NCBI GenBank assembly: GCA_964581165.1
Contig: CAZOMM010000001.1
Coordinates: 14,560-78,559, forward strand
Reading direction: 5' to 3'
Source: an uncultured Coriobacteriaceae bacterium
GTDB taxonomy: Bacteria; Actinomycetota; Coriobacteriia; Coriobacteriales; CADBOM01
DNA length: 64,000 nucleotides
The notes beneath the pieces were generated by a model. It was given only the letters and a program-made list of their open reading frames with translations, was not told the DNA's origin and searched no databases. Below, piece by piece: positions 10,569 to 22,020 of the stretch (its first letter is position 1; every line of letters begins with the position of its first letter). A program made the position numbers and the translations under genes.

Positions 10569-11594
10569 ATGGCTTGGAACAAGGAAATGCCGGCTAATCC
10601 GGTTGTAGCAGTATGCGGTGCCACAGGAGCAGTCGGACGCGAGATGCTCAAGGTGTTGGAGCAGAGAGATTTTCCCGCTAGCCGTTTTGTTGCACTTGCA
10701 AGTTCGCGAAGTGCTGGCAAAAAGCTGCCATTTAAGGGAACTGAGCTAGAGGTTCAAGAGATGACTCCAGACTCATTCCAGGGCATTGATATAGCTTTGT
10801 TCTCAGCTGGTTCGAGTATCTCGCAGCAGATGAGGCCTCATGTGGTAGGGGCAGGTGCTGTGATGATCGATAATTCTTCGGCCTTTCGTATGGAAGATGG
10901 GGTTCCACTGGTGGTTCCCGAAGTAAATCCCGAGGATGCCCTTAAGCATGAGGGACTTATTGCTAATCCCAATTGCTCAACTATTCAAATGGTTGTAGCT
11001 CTAAAGCCCCTGTATGACATCTCTAAGATTACTAGGGTGGTTGTGAGCACCTATCAAGCTGCATCGGGTGCTGGTGCCAAGGCGATGGATGAGTTGTTTA
11101 CGCAATCTCGTGAGTATTTAGATGGCGAAGAGCTGCATATCGAAGCTTTTGCTCATCAGATTGCATTTAATTGCATCCCTCATATCGATGTGTTTATGGA
11201 GGATGATTCCACTAGGGAAGAGTGGAAGATGGTTGCAGAGACCAAAAAAATTATGGGCGATCCCGACATCCAAGTTGCAGCAACCTGTGTAAGAATTCCC
11301 GTTTTGCGCTGCCATGCCGAGTCGATAAATGTTGAGTTTGAGGGAGAAGTTAGTGTTGAGGCTGCGCGAGAGGCTTTTGAGAAGGCGGCCGGGGTTACAC
11401 TCATAGACGATCCTGCTCAAAAGCTTTATCCAATGCCAGGTCTGCTTGCTGGAACCGACGATACCTACATAGGCAGACTGCGTAAGGATCCTACGGTTGA
11501 TCATGGAATTGCAATGTGGGTTGTTGCCGACCAGATTCGTAAGGGCGCTGCACTAAACGCAGTACAGATTGCCGAGATGTTGCTGCCTAGCTAG
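10569..11594 (+). CDS. asd: aspartate-semialdehyde dehydrogenase
   Basis: VAVCGATGAVG NAD(P) site and active-site NPNCSTIQM. The ATG at 10569 has AGAGGTG upstream; the ORF-track start at 10500 lies inside the repeat tract. Confidence 0.9.
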   Translation: MAWNKEMPANPVVAVCGATGAVGREMLKVLEQRDFPASRFVALASSRSAGKKLPFKGTELEVQEMTPDSFQGIDIALFSAGSSISQQMRPHVVGAGAVMIDNSSAFRMEDGVPLVVPEVNPEDALKHEGLIANPNCSTIQMVVALKPLYDISKITRVVVSTYQAASGAGAKAMDELFTQSREYLDGEELHIEAFAHQIAFNCIPHIDVFMEDDSTREEWKMVAETKKIMGDPDIQVAATCVRIPVLRCHAESINVEFEGEVSVEAAREAFEKAAGVTLIDDPAQKLYPMPGLLAGTDDTYIGRLRKDPTVDHGIAMWVVADQIRKGAALNAVQIAEMLLPS

Positions 11595-11764
11595 GTTTGG
11601 CAGCCTAGGTCTGTAAACAAGGCCGCAAGTGGATTTTGCTGAGGCGGGCCGTATATAGGTCTTACAAATTAGTAACTTGACCAGCTTCTAAGTTAACAAG
11701 CTTTGCAAGCAGATCTTTGATTGGATTTGTTTAAGCAAATGCTCAAGTAAGTGCAATAGATAAA

Positions 11765-11798
11765 GATGCCGGGGCATTACCACAATGACCCCGGCATC
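11765..11798. terminator. bidirectional-looking terminator between convergent asd and flavoprotein genes
   Basis: 10-bp arms GATGCCGGGG (11765-11774) and CCCCGGCATC (11789-11798). The flank is T-rich on the minus-strand side (TTTATCTATT). Confidence 0.6.
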
Positions 11799-11906
11799 GT
11801 TTCTGTGCGCCTTGTATTGTGCGCGCATTTATTCAGCAGTCACGCTAAAGCTGATTTAGCATAGATTCGGCATTTTTCTGAGAGCCACTTTTAGAGAACC
11901 CAACTT

Positions 11907-13040
11907 CTAGAACTTAGCTTTAAATCGGTCGTAACTTAGACCACTTATGTCTATTGTCGATGACGCACCTGTGTCTATTAGTTCTGCCATCGCGTAGCCT
12001 ATGCCAGGCGATATTCCAAAACCATGAGCATTAAAGCCGTAAGCACTAACAAGGCCAGGCACCTCGGGACAATCTCCTAGCACAGGAACCCCATCTGGTG
12101 TAATGTCGATCCATCCAGCCCAGGTTCGCACAACATTCATTTCTGCCATCATTGGGAAATATTTCATAATCCCTCGGCATACACAGGGTGCATTTGTTGA
12201 GTTTCCCTTGGTGCTTATGTCGTAAAAGTCGAAGCCCTCAAGGTCGTCGTCTCCGCCAAATACAAAGGAGCCATGATTGGTCTGCCCTCCGTAAAAGTCG
12301 GCTTCTGCTGTACCCAGCATCGTGTCAAACATATGTGGTTGACACTCTGTTACAAGGCAGTGATCAATTCGAGGCCTAACTGGAGCGTTTATTTCCACAG
12401 TTTCAAGTATTTCTTTGGATTGAGCACCAGCGCACACCATTACGGTATCTGCCTCGTATGTGTTGTTCTCGGCTATGACCTTGCGAATTCTGCCGCGAAT
12501 CTTTCGAAGACTCAAAACCTTTTCGCCAGTGATAAATCTCACTCCAGCTTCCATGGCTCGAAGATAAAAGCCTAGGCCAGTCTTGAGGGGATTGGCATGT
12601 CCATCGCTGGGACACCAACTAGCACCAACAACCTCTTCTGACAGATATGGGTTGATCTGCCTAGCTTCATCTCCCGAGATCATGCTTACATCAAGACCGC
12701 AGGCTGCAGCTCTGTCGGCTAATCCTGTGAGAATTTCCATGTGCTCTTCGGTCTTGCCTAGACGCAGGTTTCCACCTTGGTTGTACTCAACATCAATCCC
12801 CAGTTCCTCACCAAGTGTTGGCCAGATATTTTCTACAGCAAACATAGCTAGGGGGAGTTCGCGAGGGTCTCGTCCCGACTGTCTTACTCCTCCAGCATTT
12901 CTAGATGCAGCACCGTTGAGAATGACATCTTGTGCTTCGAGGACTATCACATTGGTGATTCCGCGTTTTGTTAAATAGTAGGCTGTGGAGCACCCTTCGA
13001 TGCCGCCGCCAACAATAATTACATCCGCAGTGTTATTCAT
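11907..13040 (-). CDS. FAD-dependent oxidoreductase (DAO family; beta-type subunit of heteromeric amino-acid/opine dehydrogenases)
   Basis: N-terminal DVIIVGGGIEGCSTAYYL dinucleotide fold, 377 aa, DAO-like throughout. Confidence 0.8.
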   Translation of the reverse strand: MNNTADVIIVGGGIEGCSTAYYLTKRGITNVIVLEAQDVILNGAASRNAGGVRQSGRDPRELPLAMFAVENIWPTLGEELGIDVEYNQGGNLRLGKTEEHMEILTGLADRAAACGLDVSMISGDEARQINPYLSEEVVGASWCPSDGHANPLKTGLGFYLRAMEAGVRFITGEKVLSLRKIRGRIRKVIAENNTYEADTVMVCAGAQSKEILETVEINAPVRPRIDHCLVTECQPHMFDTMLGTAEADFYGGQTNHGSFVFGGDDDLEGFDFYDISTKGNSTNAPCVCRGIMKYFPMMAEMNVVRTWAGWIDITPDGVPVLGDCPEVPGLVSAYGFNAHGFGISPGIGYAMAELIDTGASSTIDISGLSYDRFKAKF

Positions 13041-13048
13041 TGCTCCTC

Positions 13049-13369
13049 CTAGAAACTTTCGTTGCCAAGATCATGCATCTGAAGGGGCCGTTGCGGGGAG
13101 CGGGCTGCTGGCGTACATAGCTCAAGTCGTCCGCATTTAAGCTCTTTGGCGATGATTCCTTGTGCCAAACGTGTGCAGGTGCGCCCTTGACATAGACCCA
13201 TTGCACAACGAGTAAATCGCCGTATTTCGGGGAAGCGATACAACCCATCGTGTACTGCGCGTCTTATGTCGCCTTTGCTTACTTCTTCACAACGACACAC
13301 AATAAGGTCGTCGTCGGCTTCGGGTTTAAAGGGATTAGGATTGATAGATCTATATGTTGGAGAACTCAT
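13049..13369 (-). CDS. (2Fe-2S)-binding protein, BFD-like domain
   Basis: CRCEEVSKGDIRRAV...RCAMGLCQGRTC cysteine pattern, 106 aa. Confidence 0.75.
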   Translation of the reverse strand: MSSPTYRSINPNPFKPEADDDLIVCRCEEVSKGDIRRAVHDGLYRFPEIRRFTRCAMGLCQGRTCTRLAQGIIAKELKCGRLELCTPAARSPQRPLQMHDLGNESF

Positions 13370-13465
13370 CTAAGGCTCCTCAAATCTTAGTTTTAGGCTT
13401 TTGGGCATTTAAGTTGCAGAGGATGTTTAACTTACAGGGGACGTTTAGCTCGCAGGCTTAGCTAT

Positions 13466-15040
13466 TTAGCTTGCGAGCTTAAAGAAACGTGCTTGATGTG
13501 CGTATTGGCGTGGGATGCTCATTGTTAGCAGGGCTGTATGGTCAAAGGCCGATGGATTGGCAATCTTTACAACCTTTGCTCCACATACCTCGTTTCCGCT
13601 GCGATCAAGCGCCATTCCTTCAGTTCCCGTGGAGGGCAAGGGCAAAAACTCGTAAGGCAGAGTAACTTGAGCAGTTCCATCTCCAAGATCCTCATTAACT
13701 AAAAAGATGGCTTGGCCTGGGCAAAATGCTACGCACTTACCACAATTAGCGCACTTGGCCTTGGGATTGATCGTAGGCAACTTGGTCATGTTGTCCTTGC
13801 CTACATTTATGCAGTGCTGAGGACAGGCATCTCTGCAGGGATTACAAGGGATGTTTTGTGTGCATTCGATAACTGCATGCCAACCGTCTGTATGCACAAG
13901 TCCGCCAAACGAATCTATTTCTTCGTCGGTAACATAGCCTCGTTTAAGCAAACTTTGAGAAAGAGGGATTCCTTCGTCGGTTTGAGTGATTTCCTTGCCT
14001 CTATTTTGCGGAGCAAACATTCCCATTCGCAGGCTGTCCAGTGCTTCGAGATGTTCTTTTAAGGCTTTACCTGCAGTTTCTGCATCTATGTACCCTAAAA
14101 ACTCGGCCGCCGATACCGCAGCTATGCGTCCTTCGATCATGGCCGAACTGGCTTCTTCGATTCCAGAACAGTCTCCTGCAGCATAAATTCCTGGTACCGA
14201 GGTAGCGCACCGCTCATTAACAACTGGAACGCTGCCTCCCTTGTCTGTCATCTCACAACCGGCCATATCTAGAAGCTGCGATTGAGGCGAAAGGCCAGCT
14301 GCAAGACAGATTGTGTCTACATCAAAGTGTTTTTCGGTGCCCTCGATAAACTTAAAGTTGCTGTCTACTTCGGCTATCACAACTCCGCTTACATGGTCTG
14401 TTCCTTCGGCCTTTTTGATTGTGTGCGATGTGTAAAAGGGAACGCCGGTACGTGCAAGTTTGGATGCGTGTACTCCGTAGCCACCTATTTTGGGCGCTGC
14501 GTCAACAAGAGCCACGACTTCGCATCCAGCTTGCAAAAGCTGAAAACTCACCACAAGCCCAACGTTGCCGGTGCCAAGCATTAAGACTCTTTCTCCAGGT
14601 TTGACACCATTGAGGTTCATGAACATCTGAGCGGCTCCAGCGCCCATAACTCCGGGTAGAGTCCAGCCTTCGAACATGACTGCGTTTTCGGATGCGCCGG
14701 TTGCAACTATTATTGAGTCGGCTTTGCAATGCGAGACTTGTCTATCGTGATGGATCATTAGCTCTTTATTGGGAAAGATTCCCATAACTTCTGTGTTGAG
14801 TTCGACCTTGACTCCAGCTTCAGAGGCTTGTCTCAAGAGCTCTTGACCTATCGTGACTCCGCGTAGTTTAGCTCCGTGTTCTTTGGAGCCAAAAAACTTG
14901 TGAATCTGTTTGAATAGCTGACCGCCTGGACGGGAGTTTTCGTCAAAGACAACAACTTCTAGGCCATATTTTGCAGCTTCTATAGCAGCGCTAAGTCCAG
15001 ATGGTCCAGAACCTATAATTATCAAGTCGTAGCGTTTCAT
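13466..15040 (-). CDS. NAD(P)/FAD-dependent oxidoreductase with C-terminal ferredoxin-type Cys clusters (alpha-type subunit)
   Basis: YDLIIIGSGPSGLSAA and LMLGTGNVGLVVSF Rossmann motifs, with C-terminal CNPCRDACPQHC and CANCGKCVAFCP. Confidence 0.8.
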   Translation of the reverse strand: MKRYDLIIIGSGPSGLSAAIEAAKYGLEVVVFDENSRPGGQLFKQIHKFFGSKEHGAKLRGVTIGQELLRQASEAGVKVELNTEVMGIFPNKELMIHHDRQVSHCKADSIIVATGASENAVMFEGWTLPGVMGAGAAQMFMNLNGVKPGERVLMLGTGNVGLVVSFQLLQAGCEVVALVDAAPKIGGYGVHASKLARTGVPFYTSHTIKKAEGTDHVSGVVIAEVDSNFKFIEGTEKHFDVDTICLAAGLSPQSQLLDMAGCEMTDKGGSVPVVNERCATSVPGIYAAGDCSGIEEASSAMIEGRIAAVSAAEFLGYIDAETAGKALKEHLEALDSLRMGMFAPQNRGKEITQTDEGIPLSQSLLKRGYVTDEEIDSFGGLVHTDGWHAVIECTQNIPCNPCRDACPQHCINVGKDNMTKLPTINPKAKCANCGKCVAFCPGQAIFLVNEDLGDGTAQVTLPYEFLPLPSTGTEGMALDRSGNEVCGAKVVKIANPSAFDHTALLTMSIPRQYAHQARFFKLAS

Positions 15041-15058
15041 TCTTATACCCCCGTTTTG

Positions 15059-15556
15059 CTAGATTTTTGCTGTCATTGCAGTGGACATAGCAACAGGCTT
15101 TGACGTGTCAGAGGTATCCGTTGCTGCTTCGCCGAATGTTTCAGATACGGATGCTTCAGCTGTTCCGGATGTCTCAGATACGGGTGTTTCGAACGTCTCG
15201 GGTGCTTTGGATGCTTCGGGTGTTTCAGATGCTTCGAATGCCTTTGCGCTTACTCCGTACTGAGTTTGTACAGCCATGCCTTTTTCGACGGGGGTAACGC
15301 ATGTGCGAACATTGGGTTTGCCATCTACGATCATCACGCAGTCGGTGCATCGTCCTATTGCGCAAAAGACACCGCGTGGTTCATGCAAATTATTTGTATA
15401 TCGATGAATCATCACACCCGCAGCCTTAAGCGCCGCAGCAATTGGCTCTCCCTCGTAAGCTTGAATTGTTTTTCCGTTATAGGTAAACGAAATTAGTTTT
15501 CCTTTTTCGGGCTTACCTAGGATTGGGTGGTTCATTATCCGGTGAGACTTAGACAT
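15059..15556 (-). CDS. (2Fe-2S)-binding protein (Fer2_4-like) with repetitive acidic Ser/Thr-rich C-terminal tail
   Basis: FTYNGKTIQAYEGEPIAAAL...CAIGRCTDCVMIVDGKPNVRTC. The likely start is the ATG at 15556 (MSKSHRI), because the ORF-track start would overlap the upstream gene. Confidence 0.75.
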   Translation of the reverse strand: MSKSHRIMNHPILGKPEKGKLISFTYNGKTIQAYEGEPIAAALKAAGVMIHRYTNNLHEPRGVFCAIGRCTDCVMIVDGKPNVRTCVTPVEKGMAVQTQYGVSAKAFEASETPEASKAPETFETPVSETSGTAEASVSETFGEAATDTSDTSKPVAMSTAMTAKI

Positions 15557-15600
15557 TGGATTATCACTTTCTTTTTGGCGATTTGTATTTGGGGGATGAG

Positions 15601-16740
15601 CTAAGCAAACGTGGGAGCGTCCCATAGATGAAGTTTGGTGCCAATTCCCATCTTTACGGCGTTGTCATAGCAGTACTTGCCCCATGCAACGTCTTCTACC
15701 GGCATTCCACCAACACTCATCGTGATAACTTCGTCATCGCTTTCGCGTCCAGGTGCGCGGTCGAGGAGTATGTCGCCCATAGAGATGATTCGTTCGCGGG
15801 TGATCAAGCCGTCGTGAATCATGTCGGTAAACTTGCATCCAAAGATGTCCATTCCATATCCAAATGTGGGGTAGGGGTACTCATTGGCCCAAGAGTCGTA
15901 TAGGCCAATATCATCAACAACCAACTTGCACTTATCTATAAGATATTGATCCTCAACGTCAAAGGCAGAGGTACCGATGATAAAGGCACCAGGCTTGACC
16001 CAATCTCCCATAACTTTGGCATAGCTTGTGGGATCTGAGGTGGCTGTTGCTCCAAAGTAGACACAGTCGCTATCGCGGACTAGTTCTTCCAGTGTGTCTA
16101 CTACCTCGATAGTTGTAAATTGCGGGTGCTTTTCTTTAACGTAGGCAATATAGCCATCAATGCCTTGCTGGCTTCTACCCTTGATTTTTACAGTGTCTAG
16201 ATTTGGAATCTCTGCAGCAAAGGCATCGATTGCTGTACGGCTAACTCCTCCAGGTCCAAAGATCGCAAGCACCTTGGAATCTTTGCGAGCAAGATGACGA
16301 ATTCCAACTCCAGGAACACCGCCTGTGCGATATGCGGACAGCAAGTTTGCAGACTCTAGGGCAATTGGTGCTCCGGTGTCTTTGTCATTGAGCATGACCA
16401 TAAGGATCGAACGTGGCAGACCCTTTTCCTTGTTGGCAGTGTTGGAGCCGTACCATTTGCAACCTGCCATGTCAAAGGGGCCTCCTAGATAGGCCGGCAT
16501 TGCCATAAAGCGTCTATCTTCGCCTTGATCGGTTGGCATATTGGGGAATGGTGAGCTTTTGGGGAAGGTGACCATGCATCCATGGGAGGTGCCAGTTTTT
16601 CCACCCATCATAAAGTCACCTAATCTGAGGCATTTTAGGACCTCTTCCATGGTGTCGATACAATCCGAAATGTTCATTACACCAGCTTTGATCATGTCTT
16701 CTTCGTTGAGATAAAGGAAATCGATTGCCGGATAAGCCAT
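15601..16740 (-). CDS. ornithine cyclodeaminase / mu-crystallin family protein
   Basis: 379 aa with an OCD_Mu_crystall-like layout (LLSAYRTGGVPGVG..., Rossmann LAIFGPGGVSR). Confidence 0.75.
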   Translation of the reverse strand: MAYPAIDFLYLNEEDMIKAGVMNISDCIDTMEEVLKCLRLGDFMMGGKTGTSHGCMVTFPKSSPFPNMPTDQGEDRRFMAMPAYLGGPFDMAGCKWYGSNTANKEKGLPRSILMVMLNDKDTGAPIALESANLLSAYRTGGVPGVGIRHLARKDSKVLAIFGPGGVSRTAIDAFAAEIPNLDTVKIKGRSQQGIDGYIAYVKEKHPQFTTIEVVDTLEELVRDSDCVYFGATATSDPTSYAKVMGDWVKPGAFIIGTSAFDVEDQYLIDKCKLVVDDIGLYDSWANEYPYPTFGYGMDIFGCKFTDMIHDGLITRERIISMGDILLDRAPGRESDDEVITMSVGGMPVEDVAWGKYCYDNAVKMGIGTKLHLWDAPTFA

Positions 16741-16911
16741 GGGATCCTCCTTAGTGTCTGCCGCAGCTTCTTAGTGCTTAACATCTTTGCTAGCACCTAG
16801 GATTTAATTGACCTGCTGCGGTTTGGCTTTTGCTTTGCTTTACTGTGCTGTGCTCTGATCTGGCCCTTATAAAGGGAGTTTTACTTACTACTTATGAAAA
16901 CTTTTGAGCTT

Positions 16912-18240
16912 TTAATCCAATCCGGTAAAAGCGGGGTATCCAGATTCGCCATGCAGCGTGGTGTCCAGACCAGAGTTTTCGACGGTTTTGCTGACTCTGA
17001 GAGAGCCGCTAAAGATCTTTTTGACAGCAAATCCGATGATGGCCGTAATTGCAGCGACAAAAACAATCGTTACTAAAACTGCAAGTACTTGGCTTAAAAG
17101 TAGGGAGAAATCTCCGGTGTAGATAAGGCCTGCATTAGCAGATGGAGAAAGCTCTGGTGTTGCAAACACTCCAACAAGTATGGCTCCCACTAGTCCACCA
17201 AGTCCGTGTAGGCCAAAAGCATCGAGAGCGTCGTCCCATCCAAGTTTTCTCTTGAGCTTTGAGATAAAGAAGTAACAAACTGGGGAGACAATAATTCCCA
17301 TTACGATGGCTGCCCAAGGTTCGACATAGCCGCAGGCTGGGGTTATCACCACAAGACCAGCTATGACTCCAGACATCGCGCCAACTAGGGTGACTTTTTT
17401 GATTTTGATTTGTTCGACAAGCATCCATGAGATACCACCGGCACATGCTGCAAACAGGGTGTTCGCAATAGCCAAACCGGCGTTGCCATCGGCTACTAGT
17501 GCAGAACCGCCGTTAAATCCAAACCAACCCATAAACAGCATGCCGCCACCAAACATTACAAATGGAACATTGTGAGGACGCGCAGTGGAGACTTCAAAGT
17601 CTCTTCTCTTTCCAAGAATTAGGGCTAAGACTAAGCCAGATAAACCTGAGCAAATATGAACTGCAGTTCCGCCTGCAAAGTCGATGGCTCCAATACCATC
17701 TTGGATAAGGCCATTACCCCAAACCATATGAGCCATTGGGGCATAGACCAAAAGCGGCCATACAACTGCGATTACAGCTACTGCTCCAAACTTAGCCCTA
17801 CCTGCCAAAGAACCTGTAACGATGGCTGTGGTTACCATTGCAAAAGTTGCTTGGAATGCAACGCTAACGATTTCTGGATATGTGCCATAAGAGGCTTCGG
17901 CAAGAGTAGATGTATCCGTGGTTGATGTATTTGAGCTGATTACTTCTGATAGTGGCCAAGAGGAACCTATGCGCTCTAATCCCCCCACAAACAGAGCCGA
18001 GATACTCTGAATGCTGCCATCTTCTGCAAAGGCATCACTCGCGTTTCCATAAGCTATAGAGTCGCCTATTAGCGGCCAAGTGCAGCCTACGATACACATT
18101 GCAAGAATGCACATCAGCATTGTGTTGACTACATTTTTGCGCCGTGCAAGCCCTCCATAAAAAAGGGCCAATGCGGGACTCATCATGAGCACCAGAGCGC
18201 AGCTGACGATCATGAATGCAGTCGTGCCGGTGTCGTACAT
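16912..18240 (-). CDS. amt: ammonium transporter
   Basis: About 11 TM segments, with Amt signatures FGFNGGSAL and AVHICSGLSGLVLALILGKR. Confidence 0.9.
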   Translation of the reverse strand: MYDTGTTAFMIVSCALVLMMSPALALFYGGLARRKNVVNTMLMCILAMCIVGCTWPLIGDSIAYGNASDAFAEDGSIQSISALFVGGLERIGSSWPLSEVISSNTSTTDTSTLAEASYGTYPEIVSVAFQATFAMVTTAIVTGSLAGRAKFGAVAVIAVVWPLLVYAPMAHMVWGNGLIQDGIGAIDFAGGTAVHICSGLSGLVLALILGKRRDFEVSTARPHNVPFVMFGGGMLFMGWFGFNGGSALVADGNAGLAIANTLFAACAGGISWMLVEQIKIKKVTLVGAMSGVIAGLVVITPACGYVEPWAAIVMGIIVSPVCYFFISKLKRKLGWDDALDAFGLHGLGGLVGAILVGVFATPELSPSANAGLIYTGDFSLLLSQVLAVLVTIVFVAAITAIIGFAVKKIFSGSLRVSKTVENSGLDTTLHGESGYPAFTGLD

Positions 18241-18249
18241 GAACCCACC

Positions 18250-18295
18250 CTTTCTGTCGCGCGATCGGAGACGCTTTTGTTAACGCGACAGAAAG
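18250..18295 (-). promoter_or_regulatory. 12-bp perfect inverted repeat in the amt 5' leader, abutting the ribosome-binding site
   Basis: CTTTCTGTCGCG (18250-18261) and CGCGACAGAAAG (18284-18295). On the mRNA the 3' arm runs into GAAAGGGTGGGTTC-ATG. Confidence 0.5.
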
Positions 18296-18458
18296 AGCAT
18301 ATGTGCTGGTTTTTTCCTAAATGTTTCGATAACGCTTGCCCGAGCCTCGTAACATTTTTTTGAACAGGCGGTTATCTCAAAGAAACAATGGTTTAACCAT
18401 TGGGCAATAAGAGAGGCTCAAATCGCTGATTTTGAGTCGCTGATTGATTGTCAGCGAT

Positions 18459-20237
18459 TTATACCAGACCGTCTTTTTTATCGTTGGTGGCAGCTAGGTC
18501 GGCATTACGAATTGCGGCTCTCCTGATCTTGCCATTAACAGTCTTAGGCAAAGCATCAACATAAGAGATGATCCTAGGATATTTATAAGGTGCAGTTTCC
18601 TTTTTACACCAGGTTTGCAGTTCTTTTGTCAACTCGTCAGATGCCTCAAAACCAGGGCTTAGCACAATAGTTGCCTTAACACTCATGCCTCTAATCTCAT
18701 CAGGCACACCCGTAACTGCACACTCGGCAACTGCATCGTGCTCCAAAAGCACGCTTTCGATCTCAAAGGGACCAATCCTGTATCCGCTCGACTTGATCAC
18801 ATCATCATTGCGGCCCACATACCATAGATAACCGTCTTCGTCGCGCCAGGCTGTATCTCCTGTGTGATACCAGCCATCTCGAATTGCAGCTTTTGTGCGC
18901 TCCTCATCACGGTAATACTCGGTAAGAATGCCTGGAACCCAGTGCCAGTTGGTGTAATCGTGGACTTCGATGCAAATTTCGCCAGTTACACCAGCATTAC
19001 ATTCTTGGTTGTTTTCGTTCAAGATCGCCACATGATATAGGGGATTTGGCTTACCCATTGAACCCGGTTTGGGAACCATGTTGGTGAGATTGGCAACAGC
19101 AAGCGGGGTCTCGGTTTGCCCAAAGCCCTCAAAAATTGTAAGTCCGGTATGCTCCTTCCAAGCATTGAATAAATCGGGATTAAGAGCCTCACCTGCAGTA
19201 GTTGAGTAAACCAAGCTCGACAGATCGTAGGAATCGACATCTTCGAGCATGATCATGCGATACATCGTAGGTGGACAGCATAGAGTTGTGATCTTGTAGT
19301 CTTGAATTAGCCGCAAAATTTCCGCAGCATCAAAGCGGTCAAAGTCGTAGGTTAAAACGCATGCCTCCATGAGCCACTGCCCATAGAACTTGCCCCAAAC
19401 AGCTTTGCCCCATCCGGTATCAGCAATCGTAAAATGAACACCGCCGTCGCTAACAACATTGTGCCAATGCTTGGCTGTGACCAAGTGCCCCAAGGGATAG
19501 GCTCCATCGTGCATAACCATCTTAGGCTCGCCCGATGTTCCGGACGAAAAGTACATCAAGAAGGGATCTGCAGGACTTGTTTGAACCTTCTCAAAGACCT
19601 CAGATGTCTTGCGAACTTCGGTATTAAAGTCGATCCAACCCTCACGCTCTACAGGCAAAGCGCAGATGCCGTCGGGGCCGCTGAGCACAGATCCAATTGT
19701 GGGATCTTTCTTGGGATCACCCATGCCGCCGCCTCCGCCATTTACAAGGAAGACTTTTTCGACACTAGGACACTTAGGCAGGCATGCATCTACTACATCG
19801 GGGATAAAACCGCATGAAGTGCAGATAACATACTTAATTTCTGCACTATCAAGGCGGTATTTAAGATCGTGCTCCTTAAGCATAAAAGTAGCTGGCACCA
19901 TTACGGCACCAAGTTTATGTAATGCTACTGCAGTAAACCAAAACTGGTAATGACGCCTAAGAATCACCATCACCATATCGCCGCGCTTAACACCTTGCGA
20001 GGCAAGCATGTTGGCAGTTTTGTCCGACCAAAGCTTGATGTCTGCAAAGGTAAAGATGTGCTCCTCGCCCTCAGGGTTACACCATATCATTGCTGGTCTG
20101 TCTGGCTCTGCCGTTGCTATATCGTCTACGCAGTCATAAGCAAAATTGAAATCTTTGGGTATCTCCAAGTCAAAGTCTGATAAGACTCCGTTGGCATCAT
20201 AGGTCTCCCTGACGTATCTTTCATTGATCTTGAGCAT
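18459..20237 (-). CDS. AMP-forming acyl-CoA synthetase (medium-chain/acetyl-CoA-synthetase-like)
   Basis: AMP-binding motif YFSSGTSGEPK and C-terminal ...PKTVNGKIRR. The likely start is the ATG at 20237 (MLKINERY). Confidence 0.85.
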   Translation of the reverse strand: MLKINERYVRETYDANGVLSDFDLEIPKDFNFAYDCVDDIATAEPDRPAMIWCNPEGEEHIFTFADIKLWSDKTANMLASQGVKRGDMVMVILRRHYQFWFTAVALHKLGAVMVPATFMLKEHDLKYRLDSAEIKYVICTSCGFIPDVVDACLPKCPSVEKVFLVNGGGGGMGDPKKDPTIGSVLSGPDGICALPVEREGWIDFNTEVRKTSEVFEKVQTSPADPFLMYFSSGTSGEPKMVMHDGAYPLGHLVTAKHWHNVVSDGGVHFTIADTGWGKAVWGKFYGQWLMEACVLTYDFDRFDAAEILRLIQDYKITTLCCPPTMYRMIMLEDVDSYDLSSLVYSTTAGEALNPDLFNAWKEHTGLTIFEGFGQTETPLAVANLTNMVPKPGSMGKPNPLYHVAILNENNQECNAGVTGEICIEVHDYTNWHWVPGILTEYYRDEERTKAAIRDGWYHTGDTAWRDEDGYLWYVGRNDDVIKSSGYRIGPFEIESVLLEHDAVAECAVTGVPDEIRGMSVKATIVLSPGFEASDELTKELQTWCKKETAPYKYPRIISYVDALPKTVNGKIRRAAIRNADLAATNDKKDGLV

Positions 20238-20351
20238 AGTTAGCCTTCCCATTGCTTACAGTCGGCACGACGAGGCCATGCCGGTCAAATTAGTCTTTGT
20301 CCGCCAATGAATGGGGTTGTGGGGGAAATCTGTAGCGGTGTTCAGAAAGAA

Positions 20352-20948
20352 TCAGAAATCCCCTTCGGAAATTCCGTCTTCTGGGGATCGAATCACTATG
20401 GCCAAAAAGACGCAGGGTTCGCCACCAATGGCAATCATTCCATGTCCGCGTCCAGAGTCGTAAAGCAAGGCATCGCCTGCCGATAGCTCCTCGATATGAT
20501 CTTCGTATCTAAAGCGAAGCTTGCCGCTAAGAATAAAATCAAACTCTTGGCCATTGTGTTTTGAGAGATGAATAGGTGCTTCTTGCTCCTCTTCTAGATA
20601 GGGAGCTGTAACTACAAAAGGCTCACATAGCTTGCCTTCAAAGTTTGGAGCTACGTGTAGATATTCAAATCCGGCTCTTCTGCGAATATGCAGGCCATCG
20701 CCAGAGCGCACTACCGAATAACCACGAAGATGTGGATTTTCTCCGGTTAAAAGCTCGATAACATCTACTCCAAGCTTTTCTGCACATTTGTAAAGGAAGG
20801 TAAAACTCAGATCGCTCTCACCCGATTCTTGGGCAAGGTATTCTTCGACACTACGACCGGTGGCCTCAGCCATCTCTTCGTCGCTAAATCCTAGGTCGTC
20901 TCGCAGGGAGCGAATCCTGCTAGCGATCTCGTTGATATTTGGATCCAT
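20352..20948 (-). CDS. XRE-family HTH regulator with C-terminal cupin domain
   Basis: N-terminal HTH_3 (IASRIRSLRDDLGFSDEEMAEATG) and cupin_2 (GDALLYDSGRGHGM). GGGAGGA lies upstream of the ATG at 20948. Confidence 0.8.
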   Translation of the reverse strand: MDPNINEIASRIRSLRDDLGFSDEEMAEATGRSVEEYLAQESGESDLSFTFLYKCAEKLGVDVIELLTGENPHLRGYSVVRSGDGLHIRRRAGFEYLHVAPNFEGKLCEPFVVTAPYLEEEQEAPIHLSKHNGQEFDFILSGKLRFRYEDHIEELSAGDALLYDSGRGHGMIAIGGEPCVFLAIVIRSPEDGISEGDF

Positions 20949-21030
20949 ATCTGTCCTCCCTAACTTAGTCAACTCGGATCTGCTACAGCTAAATTAGCTA
21001 AACAATCGTCAGGTCGAGATTCTAGCTAGC

Positions 21031-21100
21031 TCGTTTGCTTGCGTTTACTTACGTTTGCTTTCGCTCATTTTCGCTTACTTTAGCTTACTTTCGCTTACTT
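21031..21100. repeat. seven tandem 10-bp units (TCGYTTRCTT-like), helically phased
   Basis: The seven units read tcgtttgctt, gcgtttactt, acgtttgctt, tcgctcattt, tcgcttactt, tagcttactt and tcgcttactt. Confidence 0.85.
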
Positions 21101-21262
21101 GGCAGAGCCTAAGCGCCTTGTAATAAATGCAAAAGCTATGTATAAAGGGCTTTATTTAATCTGAGCTAGAGACAGGGCGGTATTGTAGCACTGTCTCGTA
21201 CCTTAAAGACTTTTGGATGCCATACGGTATCCATACGGTACATATGAGGAGTAAGAAAACAC

Positions 21263-21883
21263 ATGAGAGACACAGAGGCATCGGAGACATCGGAGGCATC
21301 AGAGTCATCGGGCAGCAGATCCGAAAATGTTGCCAGAACTGGAATGATTGCTGCTCTGTATGCGGTTGCCACCCTAGTTACGATGTTTGTACTACAGGGA
21401 CTTTCTTGGGGACTTGTTCAAATTAGAATCTCAGAAGCTCTGATGGCCTTTGCTTTGTTTTCTCGATCGGCAATTCGAGGTCTTGGAATTGGCTGTGCAA
21501 TTGCCAACTTACTTGCAATTCCGCTTGCTGGTACTGGTGCTTTAGGTTTGCTGGATGTGTTTTTTGGAACCTTAGCCACAGTTTTAGGTGCAATGTGGTG
21601 CTGGAAAATGCGCGAACACAAGCTGTTGGGGCTTTTTGGGCCAGTAATCACGAATGCCTTGATTGTTCCAGCGTATCTACCTTTTCTCCTAACAGCTGCT
21701 GGAGCTTATACAATCCCCTTTACAGATATTGCGATTACCGGGGCCTATCCAATTTTGTATCTGGTTGGAGTCGCAGGAATTGGAATTGGGGAGCTTATAT
21801 CTGTAATTGCTCTTGGCTATCCCTTATCTAGATATCTTGCGAAGACGGGCCTGTTTACAGATAAACCAGATAAATCAGAATGA
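21263..21883 (+). CDS. queT: queuosine precursor transporter QueT
   Basis: GMIAALYAVATLV... QueT-like TM pattern, 206 aa, with an acidic Ser/Glu-rich N-terminal extension. Confidence 0.7.
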   Translation: MRDTEASETSEASESSGSRSENVARTGMIAALYAVATLVTMFVLQGLSWGLVQIRISEALMAFALFSRSAIRGLGIGCAIANLLAIPLAGTGALGLLDVFFGTLATVLGAMWCWKMREHKLLGLFGPVITNALIVPAYLPFLLTAAGAYTIPFTDIAITGAYPILYLVGVAGIGIGELISVIALGYPLSRYLAKTGLFTDKPDKSE

Positions 21884-22020
21884 GATAAAAAATGCTAGCT
21901 TTGTAAAAAATGCTAGCGTTTTACTGTATAGGGGTTTATCCTGTAGTCTGTTTTTGTAACTCCTTAGCGGCTGCAATATGTCCGTATTTGGATTGACCAT
22001 AAGTTTGGATTGTTCAGAAA

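Follow-up and report, generated by a model that had tools for sequence, protein, structure and literature searches.

The 64-kb stretch of DNA analyzed here (hereafter the window; positions 14,560 to 78,559 of contig CAZOMM010000001.1, from an uncultured Coriobacteriaceae bacterium) carries a six-gene block encoding an Amt-family ammonium transporter, a protein of the ornithine cyclodeaminase (OCD)/mu-crystallin family (hereafter the OCD-like enzyme) and, in gene order, the γ, α, δ and β subunits of a predicted flavin- and iron-sulfur-containing dehydrogenase. This block is the functional unit at the locus and is the Eggerthellaceae form of a module that is widespread in gut and rumen anaerobes, whereas the AMP-forming acyl-CoA synthetase (ACS) and XRE-cupin regulator encoded next to it are unrelated neighbors. 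The best explanation of the module, held tentatively and at slightly less than even confidence, is a nitrogen-scavenging pair of coupled C–N dehydrogenases that would act on a secondary-amine (imino-, opine-type or N-substituted) amino compound.

Boundary of the six-gene block

Eight co-oriented minus-strand genes were originally described here as one cluster. The gene and domain calls of that original prediction are reproduced in full: eight open reading frames (ORFs), all co-oriented on the minus strand, lie at 11907-20972, the intergenic gaps from the DAO to the XRE-cupin gene measure 8, 96, 18, 44, 171, 218 and 99 nt, and Pfam and NCBIfam place all eight proteins in the families first named (Table 1). 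The unity of the cluster did not survive comparison with other genomes. Homologs of the ACS, 67–84% identical, are found throughout the Eggerthellaceae. L086 (related loci in other genomes carry L numbers), an Eggerthellaceae locus whose ACS is 84% identical, runs collinear with the window, having QueT-like, XRE-cupin and ACS genes on one side and asd and aspartokinase genes on the other. By blastn, L086 3510-5977 corresponds to window 20948-18493 and L086 6085-7133 to window 11595-10548. The ACS and asd stop codons are 65 bp apart in L086, and it is precisely this ACS/asd junction that amt and the genes for the OCD-like enzyme and the Fer2_4 (γ), Pyr_redox_2 (α), BFD (δ) and DAO (β) proteins occupy in the window (11596-18458).

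The regulator gene lies directly upstream of the ACS ortholog, with the module absent, throughout L083-L086. In Paraeggerthella the genes that come after the pair encode a ParA-like protein, a ferredoxin and 2-oxoacid:ferredoxin oxidoreductase subunits; neither amt nor an OCD gene follows it. The Paraeggerthella pair heads a cluster that includes three 2-oxoacid:ferredoxin oxidoreductase subunits together with a second cupin and a second AMP-ligase, a context that hints at 2-oxoacid/acyl-CoA metabolism. Species-representative genomes were scanned with an alignment of OCD-like homologs, which gave 80 loci whose neighboring genes were identified by tblastn. The conserved neighborhood expected by the original prediction stands in part: the synteny of the OCD-like gene and the four dehydrogenase genes recurs, but the ACS and the regulator are beside the module at none of the 80 loci. 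In the closest module-bearing genomes the block has other surroundings (M28 peptidase-like, YdjC and lactate/malate dehydrogenase genes). Its GC content, 0.48, equals that of the flanks, and a search of its borders for mobile-element signatures revealed neither long flanking direct repeats nor an integrase or recombinase. Because the XRE-cupin and ACS genes are a separate conserved pair beside which six genes were inserted, the presence of the ACS, which had been left unexplained, can be put down to mere adjacency at the insertion site.

Could all eight genes nevertheless form one operon, in which the ACS would activate the released carbon skeleton and the XRE-cupin protein would sense the substrate? 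Such an arrangement would account for the shared orientation and short gaps, and the architecture of the regulator recalls that of PuuR in putrescine catabolism. It is made extremely unlikely by the indel boundary, which in L086 falls exactly between ACS and asd, by the occurrence of the XRE-cupin/ACS pair elsewhere in the Eggerthellaceae without the module, by the absence of both genes from the module loci and by a terminator-like hairpin 3′ of the ACS gene. There is a warning here for annotation, in that co-orientation and tight spacing need not mean an operon: two of the eight genes are insertion-site bystanders.

The four-subunit dehydrogenase and the OCD-like enzyme

Judged from their domains and conserved motifs, which bear out the family originally proposed, the four subunits do belong to the heteromeric DAO/Pyr_redox/2Fe-2S dehydrogenases, a group that comprises archaeal L-proline dehydrogenase (ProDH), D-hydroxyproline dehydrogenase, opine dehydrogenases and hydrogen cyanide (HCN) synthase. 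The best solved relative of β is the β chain of Pyrococcus horikoshii ProDH (1y56_B, E = 2.6e-32), SoxB chains coming next. At least 95% of 56 β homologs keep an N-terminal GxGxxG (G11, G13, G16) and R305-x-W307, R-x-W being the FMN-site motif of β subunits in this family (PMC4575208). The best solved relatives of α are SoxA and 1y56_A. Conserved in at least 95% of 57 α homologs are G10xG12xxG15, a second motif G156xG158xxG161 with D180, and nine invariant cysteines (393, 399, 402, 406, 410, 430, 433, 436 and 440). The C-terminal cysteines are arranged like those of a 2×[4Fe-4S] ferredoxin domain, with Pfam Fer4_7 and Fer4_9 matches that fall below their gathering scores.

The [2Fe-2S] motifs of the family are C-x4-C-x2-C-x11-12-C and C-x-C-x15-20-C-x4-C (PMC4575208). 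In γ, C-x4-C-x2-C-x12-C is invariant (C88, C93, C96 and C109, counted along the 188-aa mechanical ORF), and δ has C25-x-C27-x32-C60-x4-C65, all four cysteines being invariant in 40 homologs. Apart from the longer spacer in δ, the module contains and conserves the motif set described for the bacterial flavoenzymes OdhABC, OoxAB and NoxAB, LhpBEF and HcnABC (α4β4γ4) (PMC4575208). It differs from them in carrying its BFD-type cluster on a separate protein, with a 32-residue spacer in place of the published 15–20, and in the 2×[4Fe-4S]-like domain of α, which is absent from their listed motifs. Plasmid-borne homologs of β are at most about 34% identical among the best 30 records.

The γ subunit of this genome, alone among the loci compared, has a C-terminal tail of about 55 residues in which Glu, Thr, Ser and Ala abound. 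Imperfect tandem repeats of 18 nt (15181-15236) encode this tail. At all other loci its homologs are 108–112 aa long, lack the tail and end about 10 residues past the domain. An 18-nt unit is also repeated, in 2.7 copies, at 13408-13456 inside the 96-nt α–δ spacer.

Sarcosine oxidase had been raised as an alternative in the original prediction, and was checked. In the NCBIfam soxA profile, γ covers positions 13-103 and α positions 170-498, δ matches the A3 domain of SoxA and β matches SoxB. The gene order γ, α, δ follows that of the domains in the N-terminal half of SoxA, and in this respect the module resembles SoxABDG (and N-methylglutamate dehydrogenase). Unlike SoxABDG, however, none of the four proteins matches the GCV_T folate-binding domain in Pfam or NCBIfam, there is no SoxD or SoxG among the ORFs of the locus, and Fe–S cysteines are present where SoxA has none. 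The scores against soxA (130 bits, cut-off 1164) and soxB (149 bits, cut-off 529) are far under their thresholds. Methylamine use via Amt, considered by analogy with SoxB and N-methylglutamate dehydrogenase, is unsupported, with no folate domain or formaldehyde-handling gene.

The archaeal αβγδ-type ProDH is one of the nearest known systems, having a Pyr_redox_2 α, a DAO β (that of P. horikoshii being the nearest solved) and small Fe–S proteins. As with the module, an OCD/mu-crystallin gene is found in the same cluster, LhpI of Thermococcus litoralis and Thermococcus sibiricus being encoded together with the heteromeric ProDH genes (PMC4141209). The module departs from this system in that its β is only distantly related (115 bits, about as to SoxB), and in that it occurs in bacterial anaerobes, where genes for Amt, P-II or polyamine-type importers accompany it. 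Compared with the Thermococcus cluster, its OCD-like enzyme belongs to the PRK06199 subfamily and is nearer SbnB than LhpI, and a proline-racemase-like gene is missing. A comparable pairing is known from the occ operons of Ti plasmids, in which ooxAB are found together with ocd, and the substrates of the family include L-proline, D-hydroxyproline, nopaline and octopine (PMC4575208). These are secondary amines, as is sarcosine. Glycine, the substrate of HCN synthase, is the exception to this pattern.

How close is the OCD-like enzyme to a true OCD? It scores 517 bits against NF004848 (PRK06199, “tyramine oxidase subunit B”; cut-off 362) and at most 50 bits against the NCBIfam OCD equivalogs (cut-offs of at least 350; NF005762, 50 against 350), and it is far under every NCBIfam equivalog cut-off for OCD, LhpI, pyrroline-2-carboxylate (Pyr2C) reductase, SbnB and alanine dehydrogenase (AlaDH). 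Among its solved relatives are SbnB (120 bits), an archaeal AlaDH (92) and the T. litoralis Pyr2C reductase LhpI (6t3e, 87), the weakest being Pseudomonas putida OCD (1u7h, 36) and lysine cyclodeaminase (29). “Tyramine oxidase subunit B” is the only public name of the protein, and no paper behind this label was found in the full-text literature searched.

Residues R77, K95 and R138 align with their equivalents in SbnB and AlaDH and are invariant in the alignment of homologs. Established structural work has this Arg/Lys/Arg triad binding carboxylate, and since it is kept, the substrate should carry an α-carboxylate. Ser258 aligns with Asp219 of AfAlaDH, as read from pairwise HMMER alignments only, and SbnB has Ser at the same place. 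Asp219 of AfAlaDH has been equated with Asp228 of OCD, which is important in all catalytic steps of OCD (PMC4141209). Because of the low OCD scores and of Ser258 at the position of the catalytic Asp, a true ornithine cyclodeaminase appears unlikely. The protein is more likely to be an NAD(P)-linked C–N or C=N dehydrogenase of the SbnB, strombine/tauropine dehydrogenase, AlaDH or L-arginine dehydrogenase type, the last of which is listed in the OCD/CRYM superfamily (PMC4141209).

SbnB (4m54), the L-2,3-diaminopropionate synthase of staphyloferrin B, is the nearest solved relative (E = 1e-33) and shares both the triad and the Ser. Its function, NAD+-dependent oxidative cleavage of a secondary amine, is like the role proposed below. 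The OCD-like enzyme nevertheless scores only 153 bits against TIGR03944 (cut-off 327), and PRK06199 proteins, unlike SbnB, are extended by about 60 aa at the N-terminus and have extra residues inserted around 280-300. No pyridoxal phosphate (PLP)-dependent SbnA-like partner is encoded in the block, and there is no siderophore context.

These comparisons bear on two routes in which proline or a close relative would be the intermediate. In the first, which holds the step originally predicted, the OCD-like enzyme would make proline and ammonia from ornithine, and the four-subunit enzyme, as an L-ProDH, would oxidize the proline to pyrroline-5-carboxylate (P5C) on the way to glutamate. The subunit inventory and presumed gene order match archaeal ProDH, the best solved relative of β is a ProDH chain, Ti plasmids pair ooxAB with ocd, and the nitrogen link would be consistent with ammonia release. 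The OCD scores and Ser258 in place of Asp228 speak against the ornithine-to-proline step, β is not clearly nearer ProDH than SoxB, and neither the block nor its conserved neighborhoods contain a P5C dehydrogenase or an ornithine or arginine gene, all of which makes this route very unlikely. Improbable too is a Thermococcus-type route, in which the OCD-like enzyme would reduce Pyr2C (or piperideine-2-carboxylate, Pip2C) to L-proline or L-pipecolate for oxidation by the ProDH-like complex. LhpI is indeed a solved relative whose gene is clustered with those of a heteromeric ProDH, but SbnB is nearer, the LhpI/Pyr2C reductase models are far under their cut-offs, and the proline-racemase-family dehydratase/epimerase gene is absent from the block and from its recurrent neighbors.

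Distribution, importers and the nitrogen link

By their OCD-like proteins the 80 loci comprise Eggerthellaceae (91% identity), mostly Lachnospiraceae (55–70%) and some Eubacterium. The OCD-like enzyme and four-subunit core occur at 55–91% protein identity in Eggerthellaceae and in many Lachnospiraceae from the rumen and from the guts of humans and other animals. The full set of four dehydrogenase genes is found at 59 of the 80 loci, invariably in the order Fer2_4, Pyr, BFD, DAO (each of the three adjacencies is found at 59–60 loci), and the OCD gene directly precedes Fer2_4 at 55. That the OCD-family gene is tied to the complex, as first suggested, is upheld by this arrangement.

Lachnospiraceae loci (architecture A) encode a LuxR-type regulator, P-II, a PotA/B/C/D-like ATP-binding cassette (ABC) importer, a second OCD paralog, the OCD-like enzyme, γ, α, δ, β and a YqhD-like iron-containing alcohol dehydrogenase (Fe-ADH). 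The second paralog is about 42% identical and scores 442 bits against NF004848, above the cut-off. Eubacterium and others (architecture B) have γ, α, δ, β, AraC, P-II, an APC permease, RidA in some, and OCD. Eggerthellaceae (architecture C) have amt, P-II (5 of 7 loci), OCD, γ, α, δ, β and a C26 (PuuD-like) amidohydrolase, and the window corresponds to architecture C minus P-II and C26. Over all loci, Fe-ADH directly follows DAO at 40, the C26 amidohydrolase is found at 10 and RidA is adjacent at 7; GltB or NadE lies beside the cluster at some. The RidA (imine hydrolysis) and Fe-ADH/aldehyde dehydrogenase neighbors suggest imine and aldehyde intermediates.

The closest OCD-like homologs outside the Eggerthellaceae, those of L010-L015 and L042 (60–70% identity; L042 60%), are encoded without the dehydrogenase complex. 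An APC permease gene is present in L012-L015, and RidA too in L012, L014 and L015. Since these seven loci have no complex, the OCD-like enzyme can act alone.

A sister cassette is found in Proteobacteria. OCD-like genes about 53% identical (tblastn), all annotated “tyramine oxidase subunit B,” are carried on plasmids of Klebsiella, Pantoea, Acinetobacter, Sphingobium, Thioclava, Aminobacter and others. In each of six inspected records (L087-L092) the OCD-like gene is followed by RidA and then by a ThiO/SoxB-like FAD oxidoreductase of about 430 aa; an AraC/HTH regulator is near in five (not Sphingobium) and an APC permease in five (not the Aminobacter stretch). As in the module, an OCD-like enzyme is coupled to a DAO-family flavoprotein, a transporter and a regulator. 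Unlike the module, the cassette has a single flavoprotein, no Fe–S subunits and RidA in every case. On sequence grounds the pairing of a PRK06199-type OCD enzyme with a DAO-family flavoprotein is thus conserved across phyla at the level of families, the anaerobes using a four-subunit version with predicted Fe–S clusters and an NAD site. Orthology of β with the cassette DAO protein was considered and rejected, the two being only 25% identical, and the substitution is one at the family level. The Sphingobium cassette lies beside a Tn3 transposase gene within nicotine (ndp) genes, and that of Aminobacter lies near bhcA and bhcB (glyoxylate assimilation).

What does the transporter contribute? The Amt protein scores 397 bits against TIGR00836 (cut-off 343), and proteins 68–69% identical are encoded upstream of OCD in seven close Eggerthellaceae loci, five of which have a P-II gene between amt and OCD. 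P-II genes are present at 48 of the 80 loci, always beside a transporter, the orders being P-II then PotA (35 loci), amt then P-II (5) and P-II then APC (5). The P-II proteins of Lachnospiraceae (L016-L080, e.g., L080 4049-4408) have an unusually long T-loop region. Since P-II and an importer replace amt at the same place in other lineages, the amt/P-II context points to nitrogen-status-controlled uptake rather than to ammonium disposal, and the idea that Amt is explained by release of ammonium was given up: P-II accompanies amt, and a PotABCD-like or APC importer takes its place elsewhere. This arrangement suggests that P-II may gate importers other than Amt in Firmicutes. Taken with the PotD-like binding protein described below and with the RidA and Fe-ADH neighbors, the P-II genes favor a module for uptake and deamination under the control of nitrogen status.

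The leader of amt also folds. The sequence 18241-18345 has a predicted energy of -28.9 kcal/mol overall (z = -1.8), its stem lying at 18247-18298, and a hairpin is found at the same place in L003-L006, where the stem letters differ yet remain complementary (CUGUUACGAG / CUCGUAACAG against CUGUCGCG / CGCGACAG). This stem-loop could be a nitrogen-responsive leader or operator. An Rfam search of 11000-22000 at E up to 1 gave no riboswitch or leader family. The amt leaders of L003-L006 and the window also have in common an upstream TTCAAAA...TGTTACG element.

Table 1. Genes and other features at the locus, in window positions.
Feature	Position	Strand	Basis
β subunit, DAO-family FAD dehydrogenase, 377 aa	11907-13040	-	Pfam DAO 228.6 bits
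δ subunit, BFD-like [2Fe-2S] protein, 106 aa	13049-13369	-	Pfam Fer2_BFD 45 bits, SO_alpha_A3 36 bits
α subunit, Pyr_redox_2 flavoprotein with Cys-rich C-terminus, 524 aa	13466-15040	-	Pfam Pyr_redox_2 147 bits
γ subunit, Fer2_4 [2Fe-2S] protein, 165 aa	15059-15556	-	Pfam Fer2_4 103.8 bits
OCD/mu-crystallin-family NAD(P) enzyme, PRK06199 subfamily, 379 aa	15601-16740	-	Pfam OCD_Mu_crystall (PF02423) 207 bits
Ammonium transporter of the Amt family, 442 aa, first in the inserted block	16912-18240	-	Pfam Ammonium_transp 365 bits
Leader stem-loop of amt with 16 predicted pairs; ends at the ribosome-binding site	18247-18298	-	Folding of 18241-18345
Terminator-like hairpin between ACS and amt	18386-18402	-	Seven-pair stem, then TTTCTTT
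AMP-forming acyl-CoA synthetase (ACS)	18459-20252	-	Pfam/NCBIfam AMP-ligase
XRE-HTH/cupin regulator	20352-20948	-	Pfam Cupin_2 and HTH_19/HTH_3
6.86-kb block missing from the collinear relative	11596-18458		blastn of L086 against the window

The start of γ (15556) was set by alignment with homologs, the mechanical ORF (188 aa) extending to 15625. The ACS start lies at 20237, judged by a 592-aa NCBI protein that is identical across the aligned 99% of the query, and the regulator starts at the ATG at 20948, with GGGAGG just upstream. Between the divergent XRE-cupin and QueT-like genes, 21045-21100 holds 5.6 copies of the 10-nt unit TTACTTTCGC (plus strand). The QueT-like gene occupies 21263-21883, and 9- and 18-nt tandem repeats at the 5′ end of its ORF (21262-21311) encode a Ser/Glu/Thr-rich N-terminus (ETSEASESSGS), the second repeat-encoded low-complexity extension in this genome besides the γ tail.

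A candidate role in nitrogen scavenging

If the two enzymes are coupled as proposed, the DAO-type β subunit would turn the substrate into an imine by oxidizing one of its C–N bonds. The electron path that we infer would run through an interface flavin and the [2Fe-2S] clusters of γ and δ to α, and from there either to NAD(P)+, at the second Rossmann site of α, or to ferredoxin, by way of the 2×[4Fe-4S]-like domain. The SbnB/AlaDH-like OCD enzyme would use NAD(P)(H) on a companion bond, C–N or C=N, belonging to the same pathway, either by oxidative cleavage of a secondary amine in the style of SbnB or strombine dehydrogenase, or by interconversion of an imino or 2-oxo acid and an amino acid. 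Hydrolysis of the imine, a step for which relatives have RidA, would give a carbonyl compound and ammonia or a primary amine; in Lachnospiraceae, Fe-ADH would reduce an aldehyde product. The amt and P-II genes would tie expression or uptake to nitrogen status. A catabolic role on a nitrogen-linked imino- or opine-type amino compound, as put forward in the original prediction, remains the best reading, and its caution that sequence does not assign the substrate still holds. The substrate may differ among the PotABCD, APC and Amt versions.

Several observations weigh against coupled scavenging of this kind. β is about equidistant from ProDH β (115 bits), SoxB (97) and the proteobacterial cassette DAO protein (107, 25% identity), so homology does not fix the substrate. 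The window has no dedicated organic-substrate importer, RidA, Fe-ADH or P-II gene, a search across all 64 kb for homologs of P-II, C26 amidohydrolase, RidA, Fe-ADH, PotD and APC having found none, and the physiological substrate here may not be the one used by the Lachnospiraceae version. The binding protein of the latter is PotD-like (E = 1e-64 to Escherichia coli PotD) and keeps, by our residue count, 10 of the 13 polyamine contacts described for PotD structures (changed are E171A, W255F and Q327V); these contacts suggest a carboxylate-free polyamine, a poor fit to an OCD-like enzyme that keeps the carboxylate triad. The OCD-like gene is found without the complex at no fewer than seven loci with at least 4.7 kb of flank on each side, and because of these the two enzymes are not obligatorily coupled. 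Finally, amine oxidation with NAD+ as acceptor is thermodynamically uphill.

A different coupling would follow the logic of DauA/DauB of Pseudomonas aeruginosa. The complex would oxidize a D-amino (or imino) acid and the OCD-family enzyme would reduce or reductively aminate the product to the L-amino acid with NAD(P)H from α, in a redox-closed D-to-L salvage of nitrogen. Li and Lu reportedly described such an arginine-racemizing pair in 2009, the OCD-family partner being DauB. By family, though by family only, a DAO-type FAD dehydrogenase and an OCD-type NAD(P)H amino-acid dehydrogenase are encoded together in both systems; L-arginine dehydrogenase is a member of the OCD/CRYM superfamily, AlaDH-type enzymes are the second-closest solved relatives of the OCD-like enzyme, and the conserved NAD(P) site of α would close the redox loop with no external acceptor. 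The proteobacterial set of DAO, RidA and OCD-like proteins would also fit the DguA/DguB plus DauB logic of P. aeruginosa. DauA is however a single subunit, whereas the module has Fe–S and NAD-site subunits as well as nitrogen-regulation partners. Salvage of this type would leave no role for Fe-ADH (40 loci), the second OCD paralog or the polyamine-type ABC importer, RidA favors hydrolysis and ammonia release over direct reduction of the imine, and racemase-type logic is unneeded for most D-amino acids. We regard it as fairly unlikely.

The nitrogen harvest might alternatively start from polyamines or other amines and proceed independently of PLP in these strict anaerobes. The OCD-like enzyme would join an amine reductively to a 2-oxo acid, making an opine-like N-alkyl amino acid, a step modeled on saccharopine or N-methylglutamate chemistry, and the four-subunit enzyme would oxidize the other C–N bond to release an amino acid and an aldehyde, the latter to be reduced by Fe-ADH. 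Electrons would be returned by α to NAD(P)+ or ferredoxin, perhaps with bifurcation or confurcation at its extra 2×[4Fe-4S] domain, and P-II would gate the PotABCD-like, APC or Amt importer in response to nitrogen status. This scheme is unlikely as it stands. Polyamine catabolism as a firm assignment, for which the PotABCD-like importer, the PuuD-like C26 protein and the PuuR-like regulator were considered, was rejected because the regulator is a bystander, C26 is present at only 10 of the 80 loci and the carboxylate triad of the OCD-like enzyme is kept.

No paper characterizing the module was found in the full-text literature searched, the useful ones being only those on Thermococcus LhpI and on flavin opine dehydrogenase. 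The enzyme families are known, but their conserved combination is uncharacterized, as are the extra Fe–S domain, the importers linked to P-II and the spread among gut anaerobes. If nitrogen scavenging from polyamines, opine-like compounds or D-/imino acids proves true, the module would fill a gap, namely how amines can be oxidized without oxygen or quinones in non-respiring gut anaerobes, and would offer a test case for P-II gating of ABC and APC importers in Firmicutes.

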